Shown piece after piece: positions 39,012 to 46,010 of a DNA stretch of 64,000 bases. Below the pieces are notes generated by a model, which was not told where the DNA came from, did no database searches, and saw only the letters and a list, made by a program, of their open reading frames with translations. The stretch's first letter is position 1. Every line of letters starts with the position of its first letter. The translations under genes were made by a program, and so were the position numbers. This DNA comes from Planctomycetota bacterium (GTDB lineage Bacteria; Planctomycetota; UBA1135; UBA2386), in the NCBI GenBank assembly GCA_046290465.1, contig JBKAGP010000001.1, forward strand, positions 3,008,001 to 3,072,000, in the 5' to 3' direction.

Positions 39012-39908
39012 GTGCCGCCCCTTCGCCGTCCACGCCGCGCTGCGCCAACCGCCGCCCCGGGCGCGTGGATCTGCGCGCTGTTTGCAGCCAGCGCCGCCTG
39101 CTCCACGTGGATCCCGGCGCACTCCCCCACGTTCGAGAGCGACGAGACCGTGCAGCGGCGGCACTACCGGGCCACCATCGCCGACGGCCGCGACGTCGAG
39201 GTGTCGTATCTGCGTTCGGGCAACGCCGAGGCCCAGCGCGTCATCTTCGTGCACGGCACCCCGGGGCAGGCGACGGCGTGGCTCGCGTTCTTGCGCGACG
39301 ATCCGCAGCAGCTCGAACACGTGGCGCTCGACCGGCCCGGCTTCGGCGCGACGCGGCCGCTGCAGGAGGTGACGTCGCTGCGGCAGCAGGCCGCGGCGAT
39401 CGAGCCGCTGCTGCAACCGCGCAACGGCCGCTGGCCGATCCTGGTCGGGCACTCTCTCGGCGGGCCGATCGTCGCGGCGGTCGCGGCCTACTACCCCGAC
39501 AAGGTCGACGGCATCGTGATCGCGGCGGGCTCGATCGATCCGGACCAGGAGGACCTCTACCTCGCGCAGTTCCTGGGCGAGGAGCCGCCGTTCGTGTGGC
39601 TGGTGCCGACGCCGCTGCGCCACGCCAACCGCGAAGTGCTCGAGCTCGAGACCGAACTGGTGATGCTCGGCCACGACCTCGACCGGATCCGCTGCCGGAC
39701 GATCATCGTGCACGGCACCGACGACGCCCTCGTGCCGTACGGCAACGTCGCCTACATGCAGGACAAGCTCGTGCGCACGGAGGAGCTGCAGCTGGTCCGG
39801 CTCGAGGGCGGCGACCACTTCCTGCCGTGGAACGCGCAGGACGTGCTGCGCGACGCGGTCGCCCGGCTGGTCGCGCAGGACCTCGGACCGACGGATCCGT
39901 TCCGCTAG
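39012..39908 (+). CDS. Alpha/beta hydrolase, probable lipoprotein
   Basis: 'FVHGTPG', 'DRPGFG', nucleophile elbow 'GHSLGG', 'HGTDDALVP', 'GDHFLPW'; 'SAAC' lipobox-like. Confidence 0.9.
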   Translation: MPPLRRPRRAAPTAAPGAWICALFAASAACSTWIPAHSPTFESDETVQRRHYRATIADGRDVEVSYLRSGNAEAQRVIFVHGTPGQATAWLAFLRDDPQQLEHVALDRPGFGATRPLQEVTSLRQQAAAIEPLLQPRNGRWPILVGHSLGGPIVAAVAAYYPDKVDGIVIAAGSIDPDQEDLYLAQFLGEEPPFVWLVPTPLRHANREVLELETELVMLGHDLDRIRCRTIIVHGTDDALVPYGNVAYMQDKLVRTEELQLVRLEGGDHFLPWNAQDVLRDAVARLVAQDLGPTDPFR

Positions 39909-40022
39909 GAGCGCGTCCATGCAGTGGACGCGCTGCCGACCGTGATCGCGGAAGCGGCGTGTACGCGTGCGGGCGGGGCTTTGCCCGCTACGAGCGCGTC
40001 CAGGTAGTGGACGCGCTCCTAG
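39905..40022. repeat. REP/REPIN-like palindromic doublet
   Basis: Two copies of the AGCGCGTCCA-N5-TGGACGCGCT hairpin; whole unit bounded by CTAGGAGCGCGTCCA / TGGACGCGCTCCTAG; central GCGGGC...GCCCGC hairpin. Confidence 0.7.
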
Positions 40023-40129
40023 CCGGGGGCCGGCGGCCGTTCACGTTGGCGACGACGCGCGGCGGGTCGGTCGCGAGGTGGCGCGCTGGTCGGAGTGGTC
40101 TGCTCCCGGAGCCAGACGATCGGAACCAA

Positions 40130-41026
40130 CTATCGGACCGTCGGGTCGTTGGGGGTTGGTTTGGTGGCGTTGGGGAAGGTCTCGGGGACGGGGGTGGTGA
40201 CCTTGCCGGTTGCGGCCCATTCGGCGCCGCGGACCAGGGTGACCTGGAAGGCGAGGCACTTCATCGCGGTGGCGTCGTGGCCGAGTGCGGTGTGGAAGCA
40301 GCGGCCCGTGCCGAAGTCGATGGCCATCAGCAGCGGTTCGTGCTCGCCGCTGCCGCCGGTCTTCTTGTCGGAGAACGCGGTGGCCAGCACGGTCAGGTTC
40401 TCGGCCGGCCCGCGCAGGCGGTCGTAGAGTTCGTCGGCGCAGTGCAGGAAGCGCGGCGGCAGGCCCTTGGTGATCGGGTGTCCGGCATCGCGCACGTCGA
40501 GCACGAACTCGTGCCGACGGCCGTGCGAGCCGCCGCGGCCGGGCCCCGTGTCGCGCACGATCTTGCCGTCGCGCCAACGCACGTAGGGTCCCGACTTCTC
40601 GTTGCGGCGCCCCCAGCCGCCGACGCCGATCATCAGGTTGTAGTCCTTCCAGTTGGGGAACGCGTTGTCGGCGGCGTGCACGGACACGAAGCCGCCGCCA
40701 CCGCGCACGAACCCGGCGAACGCCTCGCGCGCGGCCTTCGGCCACAGCTGGCCGTTGTAGTTGGAGACGACGACGTCGTAGTCGGAGAACTTCGGCGCGA
40801 ACGCCGCGATCTCCTCCTTGCGAGATGGCGAGGTCGCGACGTCGACGACGAACCGCTCGCTGTTCTCGAGCGTCGCGCGCAGCAGCGGCGTGGTCCGCCG
40901 CCAGTCGTGGTTGTTCTGGCCGTCGACGATCAGCGCCTTCAGGCGCTTTGGCGCCGCGTCCTGCGCGACCACCAGGGACGCCGCGACCAGCGCGACCGAC
41001 AACGAACGGAGCAGACGGTGCATCAT
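40130..41026 (-). CDS. ThuA (trehalose utilization)-like domain protein, secreted
   Basis: Signal peptide; '[11 protein letters not shown]', '[10 protein letters not shown]', '[10 protein letters not shown]', 'HPIT', 'DELY', '[10 protein letters not shown]'. Confidence 0.88.
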
Positions 41027-41032
41027 GGGTTC

Positions 41033-42385
41033 CTACTTGCCGCCGATCGTCATCACGCCGTAGTTGGCGACCACCGCACCAAACGTGTTGGCGCCCGGAT
41101 CGAGCGCCGCACCCTGGCAGTAGATCTGGCCACCGAGCAGCTGCGGGTCGTTGGGCAGCGGCCGCGACCAGGTCGCGACGTTGCCGTTGGCCAGGAACGC
41201 ATCGATCAGCACCGGGTCGACCTGCAGGTCACAACCCGGCAAGCCGAACGCGGCCAGCGACGTCGGCAGCGGCCCGTAGAGCGCCGAGTTGGTGTCGCTG
41301 AGCCCGTAGAGCATCAGGCCGATGCCGTTGGTCGGCACCGGCGCGACGTCGACGGTGAAGGTCGAACCGATCCACGGCCGCGCGGTCGGCGTGATCGACG
41401 GCGTGCCGGCCGAGCCGGCGCAGCCGACGCCGCCGGTCGTGAACGTCGGGCTGTTGGTCACCGCGTAGCGCCACATCTCGGGCGTCGCGACGCTGCCGAA
41501 CATCAACACTTCCTCGCGCACGAAGTCGTAGGCGAGGTAGGTGTCGAAGCGCGGCGCCGGCAACGTCACCGGCGTGCGCTGCAGCCAGTCGGTGCCGTCC
41601 CACTCCCACGTGTCGGCCGGCGACACGCCGCCGAACATCACGATGCGATCGCGCACGATGTCGGTGACCATCGTGTGGTCGTAGCGCGCCGGCGGCAGCG
41701 TGGTCGGCTGCAGCTGCTGCCAGTCGGTGCCGTCGAACAGCCACGTGTCGTTGGTCTGGAAGTAGCCGCTGAACAGCAGCAGGCCGCCGGTCACCGGGTC
41801 GTAGGCCATGTCGCTGGCGCGACGAGCCGGCGGCGCGGTGACGGTCGTGATCTGCGCCCAGTCGGTGCCGTTCCACTCCCACAGGTCGTTGAGGTCGCTC
41901 GACGCAGCGCCGCCGAACATCACGACCGTGCCGCGGCTCGGCAGGTAGGCCATCGGATGCGAACGCCGCGACGGCGGGAACGTCGCCGGGATCACCTGGG
42001 TCCAGTCGAACCCGTCCCACTCCCACGTGTCACCGAGCAGACCACCGAACGTGTCGATGCCGCCGAACATGACCAGCTTCGCGCGCGCGGCGTCGTAGGC
42101 CATCGAGTGCGCGACGCGCGCCGGCGGCACGTTGGTCGGGCTCGCCTGGCTCCAGTCGCTGCCGTTCCAGATCCAGGTCTGGTCGCTGCGCACGTTGTTC
42201 TCGACCCCGCCGAACAGGACCGTCTGGTCCAGCGGCAGGAAGTAGGCCATCGAATGCGCGGTGAGCGCGGGCGGCGCGTTGTTGGGCGCCAACAGGGTCC
42301 ATTCGGTCTGCGCCGACAGCGACGCGACGACGGACGAGAAACTCAGCGCCGCTGCGAGCGGCGCGAGACGGGGGCGAGCAGGCAT
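41033..42385 (-). CDS. Secreted kelch-like beta-propeller protein with shared C-terminal domain
   Basis: Signal peptide; about six repeats 'PPAR..HSMAYD......VMFGG.....DTWEWDG.DW'; GGAG RBS. Confidence 0.88.
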   Translation of the reverse strand: MPARPRLAPLAAALSFSSVVASLSAQTEWTLLAPNNAPPALTAHSMAYFLPLDQTVLFGGVENNVRSDQTWIWNGSDWSQASPTNVPPARVAHSMAYDAARAKLVMFGGIDTFGGLLGDTWEWDGFDWTQVIPATFPPSRRSHPMAYLPSRGTVVMFGGAASSDLNDLWEWNGTDWAQITTVTAPPARRASDMAYDPVTGGLLLFSGYFQTNDTWLFDGTDWQQLQPTTLPPARYDHTMVTDIVRDRIVMFGGVSPADTWEWDGTDWLQRTPVTLPAPRFDTYLAYDFVREEVLMFGSVATPEMWRYAVTNSPTFTTGGVGCAGSAGTPSITPTARPWIGSTFTVDVAPVPTNGIGLMLYGLSDTNSALYGPLPTSLAAFGLPGCDLQVDPVLIDAFLANGNVATWSRPLPNDPQLLGGQIYCQGAALDPGANTFGAVVANYGVMTIGGK

Positions 42386-42575
42386 GGTGTTCTCCGGTTC
42401 GAGGTGGAACGTGCAATCTACCCGCGGTGGCCGCATCGCGCAGCGCGGCGCCGCGCCGACGGCGTCGCGAATCCGTGCCGGAGGGCCTCAGCCGCGCGCA
42501 TTGCCGTTGTCCATGGCGGACAGGATGCGCCAGCGGCCGCCCGGCAGCGAGCGGCCGGCGCGCGGTGGCCGGCGG

Positions 42576-43235
42576 CTACGCGCCGCCGAGCAGGCTCGCG
42601 AGCGCGGCCAGCCGTTCGGTCCACTGCTCGCGCGCGCGGTCGGCGGACGCCTTGTCGGCAAAGCCGCGGTGCTGCAGCTGCACCTGGCTCTTGCCGGGCC
42701 CCTTGGGCCAGAAGTAGACGTCGAGGCGGGTGTCGTCCCCCCAGTCGAAGCGCATCGACTTCTCGCGGGTCGCGGTGCGGATCCGGCACGTCACGTCGCC
42801 GAGCCACTGGCCTCGCCGCTTGCTGCCGAACGCGTCGTAGAGCACGTCGATCGGCACCGGCAGCGTCTTGCTCTTGTTGACGTCGTAGCCGCCGCCGCGC
42901 CGCTGGCCCTTGTCGCGCAGGCCGCGGATGCGTTCGTAGCCGACGGTGATCGTCTGGCACCACCACGGCGCCACGCCGTGCGCATCGCGCAGCCACCTGG
43001 CGATCTCCTTGTGGGTCTTGGAGGTCGACCCGGCCGCGTCCAGCACGGCGACCCATCCGCGCCAGTCGCGGTCGGTCTTGGCCTTGACGGCCTCGTCGCG
43101 CATGCCCGCCAGTTCGGCGAAGTCGCGACGGTCGTCGTTGGCGCGCACGATGTGCTTGCGCGCGGCGGTGTAGGACTCGCCGGTGCGGTCCATGCGATCG
43201 CGCACCAGGCGCTTCAAATCCTTCTGCTTTGGCAT
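42576..43235 (-). CDS. Conserved hypothetical protein (basic 'KRLVR.RM..TGESYTAAR' N-terminus + DUF4287-like + SRPBCC-like region)
   Basis: ATG 43235 with GGAG RBS; 'DEAVKAKTDRDWRGWVAVLDA', 'HKEIARWL', 'WWCQTITVGYER.RGLR'. Confidence 0.8.
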   Translation of the reverse strand: MPKQKDLKRLVRDRMDRTGESYTAARKHIVRANDDRRDFAELAGMRDEAVKAKTDRDWRGWVAVLDAAGSTSKTHKEIARWLRDAHGVAPWWCQTITVGYERIRGLRDKGQRRGGGYDVNKSKTLPVPIDVLYDAFGSKRRGQWLGDVTCRIRTATREKSMRFDWGDDTRLDVYFWPKGPGKSQVQLQHRGFADKASADRAREQWTERLAALASLLGGA

Positions 43236-43412
43236 TCTCGGTCTCCAGTCGTCGAGCGAGAACTCCGCACCCCGGCTACGAAGCCCGCGCGGAACGAACG
43301 GAGCTTCTGGATGCCCATCGAGATGGACCCGTCCGGGAGTATGCCTCCCTTTGCCTCGCGAGGATCCATGCCGGGGATGGATCGAAGAGGTTGGGCGTGG
43401 ACCGCGCCTGAG
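43236..43412 (-). ncRNA. Candidate structured 5' leader RNA (cis-regulatory), family not recognised
   Basis: Run of stems: GGCG/CGCC; CCTC/GAGG enclosing GATCCAT/ATGGATC; GGGAG/CTCCC; CCAT/ATGG; AGAAGCTCCG/CGGAG-TTCT enclosing GGCT/AGCC. It lies between a putative promoter and the RBS. Confidence 0.5.
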
Positions 43413-43418
43413 GTGCGA

Positions 43419-43447
43419 AGGATGCGCGGTGCGGGCCGTTCCGTCAA
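43419..43447 (-). promoter_or_regulatory. Putative sigma70-type promoter
   Basis: TTGACG (43447-43442), 17 nt, CATCCT (43424-43419). Confidence 0.4.
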
Positions 43448-43487
43448 GCGTCGACGCCGCCGCGCGGTCTAAGATGCCCCACCCACC

Positions 43488-44399
43488 ATGGAACGCTTCT
43501 ACCCCATCGGCACTCCCGGCCAGCCCTGGACCGACGCAGACAAGGTCGCCTGGTTCGAACAGCAGACCCGCAAGCGCAGCTACCGCGAGCAGGTGCTCGA
43601 CAAGATCGACGCGCTGCGCGACCGCTTCGACGTGACGCAGTACGGCGCGCTCGAGGTCGACCCCGAGCGCTACCCGCTGTTCGCGTTCGCGCCGAAGGCG
43701 CCGAAGCCCGATCGGCCGTGGGCGCTGATCACCGGCGGCGTGCACGGCTACGAGACCAGCGGCGTGCAGGGTGCGCTCGCCTTCCTCGCCGAGCACGCCG
43801 AGCACTACGCCGACCGCGTCAACCTGCTGGTCGCGCCGTGCGTCAGCCCGTGGGCCTACGAGATGATCCATCGCTGGAACGCCAAGGCGATCGACCCCAA
43901 CCGTTCGTTCGTCGACGACAGCCCGTGCGGCGAGTCGGCGGCGGTGATGCAGCTGGTCGCGAGCCGGGGCGTGTCCTGGCTGATGCACATGGACCTGCAC
44001 GAGACGACCGACACCGACGAGTCCGAGTTCCGTCCGGCCAAGGCCGCGCGCGACGGCGAGGCCAACGAACCGGGCACGATCCCCGACGGCTTCTACACGG
44101 TCGGCGACAGCGACAACCCGCAGCCGGAGTTCCAGGCCGCGATCATCGCATCGGTCGCCAAGGTCACGCACATCGCGCCGCCCGACGAGAACGGCCAGAT
44201 CATCGGCGCCGACGTCGAGCAGAACGGCGTCATCAACTACCCCGTGCACGAACTCGGCCTGTGCACGTCGATGACCGGCGCGACCTACACGAGCACGACC
44301 GAGGTCTACCCGGACAGCCCGAAGGTCACCGACGACGACTGCAACCGCGCGCAGGTCGCCGCGGTGCGCGGCGCGCTCGACTTCGTGCTCGCACGGTAG
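43488..44399 (+). CDS. M14-family zinc metallocarboxypeptidase (AstE/AspA-like)
   Basis: 'GGVHGYE' (HxxE), 'DPNRSF', 'DLHE', 'TTEVYP'. Confidence 0.88.
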   Translation: MERFYPIGTPGQPWTDADKVAWFEQQTRKRSYREQVLDKIDALRDRFDVTQYGALEVDPERYPLFAFAPKAPKPDRPWALITGGVHGYETSGVQGALAFLAEHAEHYADRVNLLVAPCVSPWAYEMIHRWNAKAIDPNRSFVDDSPCGESAAVMQLVASRGVSWLMHMDLHETTDTDESEFRPAKAARDGEANEPGTIPDGFYTVGDSDNPQPEFQAAIIASVAKVTHIAPPDENGQIIGADVEQNGVINYPVHELGLCTSMTGATYTSTTEVYPDSPKVTDDDCNRAQVAAVRGALDFVLAR

Positions 44400-44425
44400 C
44401 GGCGGCCGCGTGCGTCGCGTAGCCG

Positions 44426-45814
44426 CTACTGCACCGACTCGCCGAACGTGTTGGTGATCGTCACGCCGACCAGCGGATCGAACACCACACCCTGGTAGTT
44501 GAGCGGCGTGCCGACCAGCGCCGGCACGTTGGGCAGGGCCCAGGTGACGGTCAGCGGGCTCGCACCGGTCTGCGCACCGACCACCAGCGCGCTCGCCGGA
44601 TCGAGGCGCAGCGTGCCGATCGGGCCGAGCGGCAGCACGCCGGCACCGAACGACGCGACCAGCAGGCCGGGGTAGGCGCCGCCGGTGCGGGTGTGCAGTT
44701 CGACCGAGTAGTTGCCGGCGATCACCGGCGGCGCCGTGGCGTCGACGTGGCGCAGGAAGTTGGGCAGGCCGGGCAGGTCGAGGTCGCCGTCCCCGTCGTA
44801 GTCGGCGGCGACGGCGCCGCGGTAGACGCCGAACGACACCTGCTGCGACGACGCGACGAACGTGAACACGCCGGTGCCGTCGTTGAAGCCGATCTCGGCC
44901 GGACGCACCAGGTCGACGTCGCCGTCGTCGTCGACGTCGAACGCGCCGTAGCCCGGCACCGTCGAGGCGACACCGGAGTTGCCGGTGACGTCGACGAACA
45001 CGCCGTTCCCGAGGTTCTCGTAGAGCAGCCGGCCGTAGCTCGCGAACACGTCGATGTCGCCGTCGCCGTCGACGTCGACCAGCCAGTGCGCGCCCGACGC
45101 GGCCGCAGGAAGCTGCGTCGCGGCCGGCGTCAGCACGCCGTTCTGGTTGAGCAGCAGACCGCCGACGCCCGGCACCAGCACGTCGAGGTCGCCGTCGCCG
45201 TCGAGGTCGCGCGCCGGCGGCGCCTGGTAGTACTCGAAGCCGAGGCCGAGCGGCACGTTGAGCAGGCGCACCGCGGTCTGGTCGGAGAACACACCGGCAC
45301 CGTTGTTCTCGTAGTAGCGGCAGCCATCGGGTCCGACCGCGAGCCAGTCGGCATCGCCGTCGCCGTCGAAGTCGGCCACGACGTGGTTCTTGGTGTCGAA
45401 CGCCTGCGCCGGCAGGGCCGTCGCGGTGACGTTGGTGAACACACCGGCGCCGTTGTTGACGTAGACCTCGTTGGACACGAAGTCCTCGTTGCCCATCAGC
45501 AGGTCGAGGTCGCCGTCGCCGTCGATGTCGACGAGGTCGACGCAGTGGTTGTCGACGAACGCCGGCGAGGTCAGGCGGGTGGCGGACTCGTCGACGAAGC
45601 CGCCGTTGCCGTCGTTGATCAGCACTTGCGCCGCGAAGAAGTCGTTGGCCGCGACGAGATCGAGATCGCCGTCACCGTCGAGGTCGCCGCTGGTCAGCTT
45701 GACGGGGTTGAGGTTCTGCGGGAGCGTCGCGAAGCGCGTCGCCCGGAACGGCGACTGGGCCGACGCGGCGGCGCACAGGACGAGGGAAGAGAGCAGGCAG
45801 AGGGGTCGTTGCAT
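44426..45814 (-). CDS. Secreted FG-GAP/VCBS repeat protein with shared C-terminal domain
   Basis: Signal peptide; seven 'D.DGDGD.D' repeats, several followed by 'N.G.G.F.D.T'. Confidence 0.9.
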   Translation of the reverse strand: MQRPLCLLSSLVLCAAASAQSPFRATRFATLPQNLNPVKLTSGDLDGDGDLDLVAANDFFAAQVLINDGNGGFVDESATRLTSPAFVDNHCVDLVDIDGDGDLDLLMGNEDFVSNEVYVNNGAGVFTNVTATALPAQAFDTKNHVVADFDGDGDADWLAVGPDGCRYYENNGAGVFSDQTAVRLLNVPLGLGFEYYQAPPARDLDGDGDLDVLVPGVGGLLLNQNGVLTPAATQLPAAASGAHWLVDVDGDGDIDVFASYGRLLYENLGNGVFVDVTGNSGVASTVPGYGAFDVDDDGDVDLVRPAEIGFNDGTGVFTFVASSQQVSFGVYRGAVAADYDGDGDLDLPGLPNFLRHVDATAPPVIAGNYSVELHTRTGGAYPGLLVASFGAGVLPLGPIGTLRLDPASALVVGAQTGASPLTVTWALPNVPALVGTPLNYQGVVFDPLVGVTITNTFGESVQ

Positions 45815-46010
45815 CGGACTCCGAGGGGTGGGTCGTTGCCTTGGGGGCGCGCGACCAGGAGCAACTGCCATGCCCGTCCCACCGATGTCCCGGCGCGGAC
45901 ACGACAGCGGCCCGGACGTTCCGCGGGCGTAACGGCAAGGCCGTCGACGCCGGCGATGCGCCGGGCCGCTGGCGCGACGCCCCGGAGGGCGCCGCAGCTT
46001 TGGACCTGGA

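Follow-up and report, generated by a model that had tools for sequence, protein, structure and literature searches.

The DNA analysed here, called the window below, is a stretch of 64,000 nucleotides from a Planctomycetota bacterium (GenBank assembly GCA_046290465.1, contig JBKAGP010000001.1, positions 3,008,001 to 3,072,000). A gene on its minus strand, running from 43235 to 42576, encodes a protein of 219 residues whose N-terminus reads MPKQKDLKRLVRDRMDRTGESYTAARKH. A GGAG ribosome-binding site (RBS) at 43246-43243 (-) lies 7 nt upstream of the ATG of this gene, and a divergent M14-like gene starts at 43488, which gives an intergenic region of 252 nt. The subject of this work is the structured RNA that leads the mRNA of the minus-strand gene. 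It belongs to a widespread, uncatalogued family of cis-acting mRNA leaders; each leader and the first ~34 codons of the gene behind it make up a single unit.

The RNA core was described by a covariance model, R1, built from 14 RNA cores of the window's phylum. R1 matches the window at 43325-43411 with a score of 80.2 bits (E 2e-13), and this is the sole match in the window's genome. Full leaders were compared in A4, a structure-blind MAFFT alignment of 69 sequences, from which one leader (L082, 259 nt) was left out for its length. A4 supports eight helices (P1, the pseudoknot PK1, P2, P3, P4, P5, P6 and a 7-bp kissing loop), with compensatory changes on both sides in 28 of the 41 pairs. Such both-side changes were found in 5/5 pairs of PK1, 7/7 of P3, 2/4 of P2, 6/6 of P5, which is the helix between the anti-Shine-Dalgarno and Shine-Dalgarno (SD) strands, and 3/3 of P6. 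PK1 recurs as the compensatory variants GAUCC/GGAUC, GACUC/GAGUC and GAACCAG/CUGGUUC, and P1 is near-invariant in sequence, with the rare variants GGUG/CACC in L021 and GCGCG/CGCGC in L023. Many of the pairs are G-U, and the fold is therefore strand-specific, that is, RNA. Overall, 89.8% of the cells in A4 are paired, compared with 82.3% in shuffles (none of 500 reached the observed value) and 41.8-57.8% with slid partners; as the sequences are related, the shuffle controls overstate significance, and it is the slid-partner controls and the distinct compensatory variants that carry the argument.

A second tertiary contact, the kissing loop, pairs the P3 loop with the apical loop of the 3' domain. 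A perfect 7-nt complement of the P3 loop lies 33-49 nt before the AUG in 61 of the 69 leaders. Eight different P3-loop sequences have matching partners, and 14 of the 20 leaders with a minority loop carry a perfect 7-nt complement, whereas complementarity over 7 nt was reached in only 20 of 828 non-cognate combinations. The 3' domain of the window, folded in isolation, has a minimum free energy of -33.1 kcal/mol, and its CUCCG:UGGAG pairing has a probability of 0.88-0.97. Family-wide, the 3' part is more stable than its shuffled counterparts (mean z -2.22, below -2 in 38 of 69 leaders, mean dG -36.1 kcal/mol). These comparisons show that the leader is a conserved structured RNA with a pseudoknotted 5' domain and a long 3' hairpin, the base of which pairs an anti-SD with the SD.

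Two unpaired junctions are also conserved in the family, CAA(C) and CAAAG. The latter is invariant in A4. However, the search pattern through which the family was collected (see below) fixes parts of P1 and P2, the CAAAG junction and the 5' strand of P4, and the invariance of these parts in the alignments A3 and A4 is therefore partly by construction. Their real variation is seen in A7, a peptide-first alignment of 41 rows, in which the CAAAG junction is near-invariant, with the variants CCAAG, GAAAAG, UAAAG and CGAAG.

A previous sequence-only reading of the locus had described the interval as five consecutive stems. All the motifs and coordinates that it quoted are present in the sequence, and the conservation and covariation upstream of homologues that it looked to for support are borne out by the covarying pairs of A4. 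Three of its stems (CCTC/GAGG, GATCCAT/ATGGATC and GGGAG/CTCCC) correspond to the covarying helices P2, P3 and P4. The other two did not fare as well. The CCAT/ATGG stem is no conserved element of the family but sits in an insert that the other 68 aligned leaders lack: the central 12 A4 columns of this insert contain letters in the window row only, and the remaining rows are gapped. In place of the proposed ~9-bp stem at 43259-43308, the conserved pairing is the long hairpin of 43303-43243. P1, the pseudoknot, the kissing loop and the sequestration of the RBS were absent from that reading. The positions of all these features are collected in Table 1.

Table 1 Features of the leader, of the gene behind it and of the neighbouring genes, in window coordinates
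Feature	Position	Strand	Basis or remark
Whole structured leader RNA, about 177 nt	43236-43412	-	R1 match and architecture counted on A4
-35-like hexamer TTGACG (candidate)	43442-43447	-	read in sequence
-10-like hexamer CATCCT (candidate), 17-nt spacer from -35	43419-43424	-	read in sequence
P1 hairpin, GGCG (43408-43405)/CGCC (43397-43394), loop CGGUCCA	43394-43408	-	A4
PK1 5' strand GUCC, within the P1 loop	43399-43402	-	pairs with GGAC 43334-43331
P2, CCUC/GAGG (43390-43387 with 43357-43354), around the P3 hairpin	43354-43390	-	A4 pair changes
P3, GAUCCAU/AUGGAUC (43383-43377 with 43369-43363)	43363-43383	-	A4 pair changes
P3 loop CCCCGGC, 5' kissing-loop partner	43370-43376	-	perfect 7-nt complement of GCCGGGG at 43276-43270
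Unpaired junction CAAA (CAAAG with the first G of P4)	43350-43353	-	most conserved unpaired stretch
P4 hairpin, GGGAG-GCAUA-CUCCC (43349-43345 with 43339-43335)	43335-43349	-	94.8% of cells paired
PK1 3' strand GGAC, immediately after P4	43331-43334	-	A4 family alignment
Lineage-specific 25-nt insert with small CCAU/AUGG hairpin	43305-43329	-	A4 gaps
3' domain, one long hairpin (base, anti-SD:SD helix; tip, kissing hairpin)	43243-43303	-	fold and P5/P6 covariation
Anti-Shine-Dalgarno CUCCG	43299-43303	-	pairs with UGGAG 43247-43243
Apical loop GCCGGGG, 3' kissing-loop partner	43270-43276	-	complement of P3 loop
Shine-Dalgarno region UGGAG	43243-43247	-	7 nt upstream of ATG; sequence read and isolated 3' domain fold
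Conserved basic N-terminal peptide, start codon plus 34 codons	43134-43235	-	alignment of 82 peptides and AlphaFold2 (AF2) helical hairpin
Rest of the gene: DUF4287-like helical domain, AHSA1/SRPBCC domain and stop codon	42576-43133	-	Pfam, AF2, Foldseek
ThuA-family protein	40133-41026	-	neighbour
Kelch-repeat protein with signal-like N-terminus	41036-42385	-	neighbour
Weak M14/DUF2817-like peptidase, divergent from the leader	43488-44396	+	neighbour
FG-GAP repeat protein	44429-45871	-	neighbour

The family was collected from both of its ends. Starting from the RNA, a pattern scan of the genomes of 185,579 species that used the RNA only returned at least 120 stretches, and 80 loci were fetched. 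Among the matches listed, and judged by record titles, at least 8 phyla carry the RNA; the titles name Gemmatimonadota, Acidobacteriota, Actinomycetota, Myxococcota, Planctomycetota, Chloroflexota, Dormiibacterota, Krumholzibacteriia and others. R1 matches 74 of the 80 loci (L043, L069, L093, L101, L109 and L115 are negative). In 69 of these 74 loci, an open reading frame (ORF) beginning with the motif M..K..K...R.RM..TGE.Y..AR follows the RNA core at a distance of 58-151 nt. The remaining five were re-read: the peptide is encoded in a broken gene in L050 and behind a masked stretch in L052, L076 runs out with its contig, and L068 and L088 are without it. The peptide ORF is thus present in 71 of 74 loci.

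Starting from the peptide, the first 45 residues of the window protein were searched against 401 genomes of the window's phylum, of which 14 matched, and one further homologue came from a search of relatives. The same RNA element was found in the 330 nt upstream at 14 of 14 loci with the true peptide, the window being one of them. Both motif and RNA are missing from the two weakest matches, L026 and L027, which were treated as chance matches; without them, the peptide occurs in 12 of the 401 genomes, that of the window among them. In a second set of 28 loci, 25 from a 401-genome sample of Actinomycetota and 3 from other genomes, the RNA lies 65-75 nt upstream of the peptide in every case. It is likewise present at 19 of 19 paralog loci in six multi-copy genomes, 13 of these loci being new, which brings the peptide-first total to 55 of 55 distinct loci. 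Within the Actinomycetota sample the peptide was found in 52 of 401 genomes, in up to 4 copies each; 8 of the 52 are flagged as unpublished and were counted in this tally, their sequence not being used.

RNA and peptide are thus near-absolutely coupled in both directions. The two counts support the existence of an RNA-plus-peptide module, and together with the unrelated C-terminal domains described below they bear out what the sequence-only reading had stated, that the peptide heads diverse proteins and has a similar leader upstream. When 151 genomes of the phylum were searched with a covariance model, two further peptide-less copies (L034 and L037) and one weak match inside an ORF (L035) came to light. 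In L088 an esterase-like reading frame directly follows the RNA core, and small unrelated ORFs with membrane-like N-termini lie downstream in L034 and L037. In L052, from a Steroidobacteraceae metagenome-assembled genome (MAG) contig, the R1 match is cut by a run of N, after which come a partial core from the P3 loop onwards, a 3' domain and a peptide with RS in place of RM; this may be one leader interrupted by the masked stretch, or a tandem pair. A selenocysteine tRNA gene (RF01852, 69.2 bits) lies directly upstream of one family leader and an ordinary tRNA gene near another (loci L015:1887-1981 (+) and L020:2099-2172 (+)).

The peptide itself is highly conserved. In the alignment A5, 82 peptides align without a gap over 34 residues, with M1, K8, R12, R14, T18, G19, E20 and A25 invariant and M15, Y22 and R26 near-invariant. 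Folded alone, it is confidently predicted to form a helical hairpin (predicted local distance difference test, pLDDT, 88.5). A profile of the peptide, run against 1.84 billion cluster representatives (protein clusters at 50% identity), matched 4057 proteins at E <= 0.001 and 1129 at E <= 1e-10. It starts at residues 1-3 in 121 of the top 150 matches, and all six of the exceptions that were inspected proved to be gene calls extended through the leader, so that the peptide is, as judged from these sequences, always N-terminal. No Pfam family covers it, either in 42 downstream proteins or in 12 N-terminal peptides at E <= 10. The only Pfam matches of these 12 are to DUF6703 (PF20444), where two peptides align at E 0.11 and 0.19 with positions 4-38 of the model, and the start of the DUF6703 model may include the cassette peptide. 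The idea that the peptide is a basic end of the ribosomal-protein kind was dropped, none of the 12 peptides matching a ribosomal-protein Pfam family at E <= 10. Foldseek with the model of the 34-residue peptide gave nothing at E <= 0.001 (best E 3.0), the hairpin being too small to be informative, and an ESM Atlas look-up of residues 1-36 returned no usable match.

What follows the peptide differs from locus to locus. Pfam analysis of the 42 downstream proteins returned DUF4287 and/or AHSA1, BtrH_N with DUF4872, TPR, Clp_N, DUF1835, and Ldh_1_N with Ldh_1_C, and many of the proteins are without a family. In one Acidimicrobiales MAG contig (L100:3-1118 (-)), a malate/lactate dehydrogenase (Ldh_1_N, E 1.6e-31; Ldh_1_C, E 6.2e-21), an enzyme of the core-metabolism type, wears the same leader and peptide. 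Since the same RNA and peptide precede unrelated C-terminal domains, the module is independent of what follows it, and the proposal that the ligand-binding-like C-terminal region of the window protein senses a signal for it is not supported. Because the downstream domains are mutually unrelated, the peptide is the only common partner of the RNA.

In the window protein, matches to DUF4287 (residues 49-92; 25.7 bits against a cut-off of 27) and AHSA1 (residues 143-217; 20.8 bits against 22.1) fall just below the Pfam thresholds, which homologues pass (AHSA1 at 31.7 bits in L056, DUF4287 at 31.3 bits in L096). The AF2 model of the protein (pLDDT 92.8) consists of an N-terminal helical hairpin (helices 4-18 and 22-35), a helical domain and an SRPBCC (AHSA1/START-like) domain. 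Searched with Foldseek, this model matched 33 PDB chains at E <= 0.001, mostly Aha1/AHSA1/START-like (SRPBCC) proteins, and the C-terminal part is accordingly predicted to have the SRPBCC (AHSA1/START-like) fold. Close homologues are named in the databases as 'hypothetical protein', 'DUF4287 domain-containing protein' or 'YndB with AHSA1/START domain'.

Six Actinomycetota genomes (G612, G544, G572, G651, G664 and G729; loci L191-L209) carry 3-4 paralogous cassettes each. The P3 loops of the paralogs differ (CCCCAGC, CCCACGC, CUCACGC, also ACCACGC or UCCACGC) and their peptides are nearly unchanged. Distinct loops could prevent one mRNA from forming kissing contacts with another. As the genomes are probably related and the paralogs come from three old subfamilies, the pattern is not independent evidence.

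Upstream of the leader lies the promoter candidate TTGACG-17-CATCCT of the sequence-only reading, from which the 5' end of the leader was inferred. Its hexamers and spacer are indeed present, but a strict sigma-70 promoter and terminator scan of 43150-43550 found no site of either kind. Among family members, TTGAC occurs 32-39 nt upstream of the RNA core in 20 of 74, and hexamers resembling CATCCT, CACAAT or TATCGT, judged by eye, lie ~8-12 nt before P1 in others.

The neighbours of the window gene belong to four types (Table 1), and a limited look at the surroundings of other family members saw none of the four recurring there. Because the window DNA has a G+C content of 70%, very long open frames also run on non-coding strands, for example one of 1271 residues at 39065-42880 (+); these are not genes. 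The same high-G+C effect leads gene callers to extend the cassette ORF through the leader.

The leader matches no Rfam family; the sequence-only reading, too, could name none. In a search of window positions 42000-44500 with the 4227 models of Rfam 15 at E <= 10, the best match was a spurious one on the opposite strand at E 0.23, and 13 other loci searched at E <= 1 gave only tRNA genes and spurious matches, none of them on the leader. Full-text literature, in a coverage that omits most subscription journals and supplementary motif lists, held nothing on this RNA or peptide; one paper on DUF4287 concerns type 6 secretion (PMC6653060), and another deals with the control of rpsO in mycobacteria (PMC8470358). 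The leader resembles riboswitches in general in having a conserved, covarying, aptamer-like domain in the 5' untranslated region joined to an expression platform, but the 42 downstream proteins examined with Pfam are not functionally coherent. The leader family has a near-obligate partner peptide, which is not known of any riboswitch class.

Several known systems share part of this design. Ribosomal-protein mRNAs have autogenous translational operators, among them the pseudoknot operators of L20 and S15. Like these, the leader is a structured, pseudoknotted 5' region that involves the RBS, here through PK1, the kissing loop and the anti-SD:SD helix, and the logic proposed below would be analogous, with an encoded protein that binds the leader of its own mRNA, perhaps because the leader mimics the protein's main RNA target. 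Unlike these, the presumed binder is a tag of ~34 residues on unrelated non-ribosomal proteins, no ribosomal-protein Pfam family was found on the full proteins or the peptides, and no Rfam leader matches. In the cobalamin riboswitch (RF00174), the sensing domain forms a kissing contact, through one of its loops, with the apical loop of an RBS hairpin further downstream, much as the P3 loop pairs here with the apical loop of the SD hairpin. This is a likeness of working and not of membership: RF00174 gives no match, the core differs (P1, PK1 and the CAA/CAAAG junctions), and the downstream genes are, by the Pfam analysis of the 42 proteins, unrelated to B12.

Short basic peptides that recognize RNA offer a further comparison. 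In the arginine-rich pairs lambda N-boxB, HIV Tat-TAR and Rev-RRE, as may be the case here by analogy, a short basic helical peptide at the end of a protein is thought to recognize a specific folded RNA. Those peptides act in trans on transcription or export and have small hairpins as their targets, whereas the presumed target here is a multi-domain leader of ~165-180 nt on the mRNA that encodes the peptide, which itself is a two-helix hairpin. Rop (Rom) of ColE1 plasmids binds the kissing complex of RNA I and RNA II. It shares with the present system the combination of a helical hairpin and a kissing complex of two 7-nt loops, and the loop sequences vary while the protein stays constant (here, eight loop variants and an invariant peptide). 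However, there is no match to Rop in sequence or fold (Foldseek best E 3.0, Pfam none), the peptide helices are about half as long, and the kissing complex is intramolecular and lies in an mRNA leader.

The interpretation that we favour, with a confidence that falls slightly short of even, is that leader and peptide form a self-contained translational feedback cassette in which the peptide binds its own leader and locks the fold that hides the SD. The peptide would do so either while nascent or as part of the finished protein, probably at the invariant 5' core or at the kissing complex, and by holding the leader in its closed, SD-hidden state it would exert negative feedback on translation. 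In a variant of this scheme, the main target of the peptide would be another cellular RNA that the leader mimics, as in ribosomal-protein feedback. We entertain more tentatively, with doubt outweighing belief, a fuller version in which promoter, knotted leader and 34-codon tag make up a portable, self-contained cassette, and the tag stops further initiation by clamping the kissing-loop fold of the mRNA that encodes it. There, the tag would act while emerging from the ribosome or as free protein, possibly in cis on each mRNA, and the leader may also mimic the tag's real cellular RNA target.

Several observations weigh against a feedback cassette. The link between peptide and leader is one of genomic association only. 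The 3' hairpin, at ~-36 kcal/mol, looks closed by default, which is at least as compatible with an inducible 'off' element as with a feedback repressor. Where a genome has 3-4 cassettes, the peptide is nearly identical in all of them, so that any feedback would be shared between paralogs and not private to each. Four RNA cores are without the peptide (L068 and L088, both full cores, L034 and L037); of these, L068, L088 and L037 have no intact 3' domain either and seem to be decayed or recombined, L068 keeping the kissing-loop strand and having lost the RBS and ORF, and L034 keeps the kissing-loop strand (5/7 pairs). In partition functions, the SD core is paired with a probability of 0.69 against 0.58 in controls, exceeding the control in 49 of 67 leaders; this excess is modest, and the case for SD pairing is built on covariation. 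Leaders of the Actinomycetota type have an anti-SD that fails to align with the majority one, and its cells were counted as unpaired in A4. An alternative pairing of the anti-SD with a CAAAGG junction, considered as an 'on' state, was set aside; by eye it fits leaders of the CCUUUG type only and not that of the window.

The folding energy of the whole leader also fails to set it apart. The sequence-only reading had named folding no better than dinucleotide shuffles as a finding that would tell against its proposal, and for the window's own sequence this is what we obtained (212 nt, -85.1 kcal/mol, shuffle mean -85.1, z 0.00); whole leaders across the family reach a mean z of only -0.76. Single-sequence folding is uninformative for a pseudoknotted, GC-rich RNA, and chance is excluded because of the covariation and not because of folding energy.

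The most serious competing explanation, which we regard as somewhat unlikely, is that the leader is a riboswitch, or the target of a trans-acting factor, which senses a global signal (a metabolite, an ion, stress or a regulatory protein), while the peptide has a separate job shared by the proteins that bear it, for instance as a tether to nucleic acid or some cellular machine. The signal would open or lock the SD-hiding hairpin through the kissing loop, and the cassette would be inherited as a block. The aptamer-like layout, with its pseudoknotted core, invariant unpaired junctions, kissing loop to the SD hairpin and stable closed state, suits this explanation, and in genomes with 3-4 cassettes one signal would govern a small regulon. 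The very stable 3' hairpin, the almost identical peptides of paralogs and an SD pairing only modestly above its controls point the same way. Block inheritance is also in keeping with the co-occurrence of RNA subtype, peptide subtype and C-terminal family, the subtype-2 RNA being found with BtrH_N in three phyla. However, riboswitch classes normally precede functionally coherent genes, and here the peptide is the only shared feature. The coupling in 71 of 74 and 55 of 55 loci is stricter than block inheritance alone predicts over such distances, and three of the four copies without a peptide (L068, L088 and L037) are without an intact 3' domain as well, although L034 keeps its kissing-loop strand. 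No riboswitch model of Rfam gives a match.

It seems improbable that the leader is a constitutive, ligand-free element that damps translation or stabilizes the mRNA, with the peptide an unrelated nucleic-acid-binding or localization tag and the pairing of the two the outcome of gene fusion and transfer, which spread one ancient 5' segment of a gene. Such an element could account for the stable 3' hairpin (mean dG -36.1 kcal/mol), and the sporadic distribution, in 12 of 401 and 52 of 401 genomes, fits an accessory cassette. But PK1 and a 7-bp kissing loop kept by compensatory changes, with invariant junctions across at least 8 phyla, exceed what simple RBS occlusion calls for, and in 55 peptide-first loci neither part has been lost from the other. 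To chance structure, or conservation at the coding level in GC-rich DNA, for instance as an N-terminal extension from an upstream start, we give next to no credence: the window leader is no more stable than its shuffled versions, an open frame extends upstream of the window ATG and some database gene calls run through the leader, but 28 of 41 pairs show compensatory changes, with many G-U pairs that can form on one strand only, the distance from RNA core to AUG (58-151 nt) does not preserve the reading frame, the peptide's start is marked by a conserved SD and ATG or GTG, and in-frame translation of the leader reveals no protein conservation beyond the RNA core.

Whatever its mechanism, the leader represents a large class of structured RNA with two tertiary contacts that is missing from Rfam, and 4057 protein clusters (50% identity) in public databases bear its partner peptide. 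If the feedback cassette that we favour is real, it would be the first natural, transferable unit of tag plus operator that gives feedback control to unrelated proteins. That would amount to a new principle of regulation, and synthetic biology would gain a part ready for use. If the fuller, portable version also holds, any protein fused behind the tag would gain built-in dosage control.

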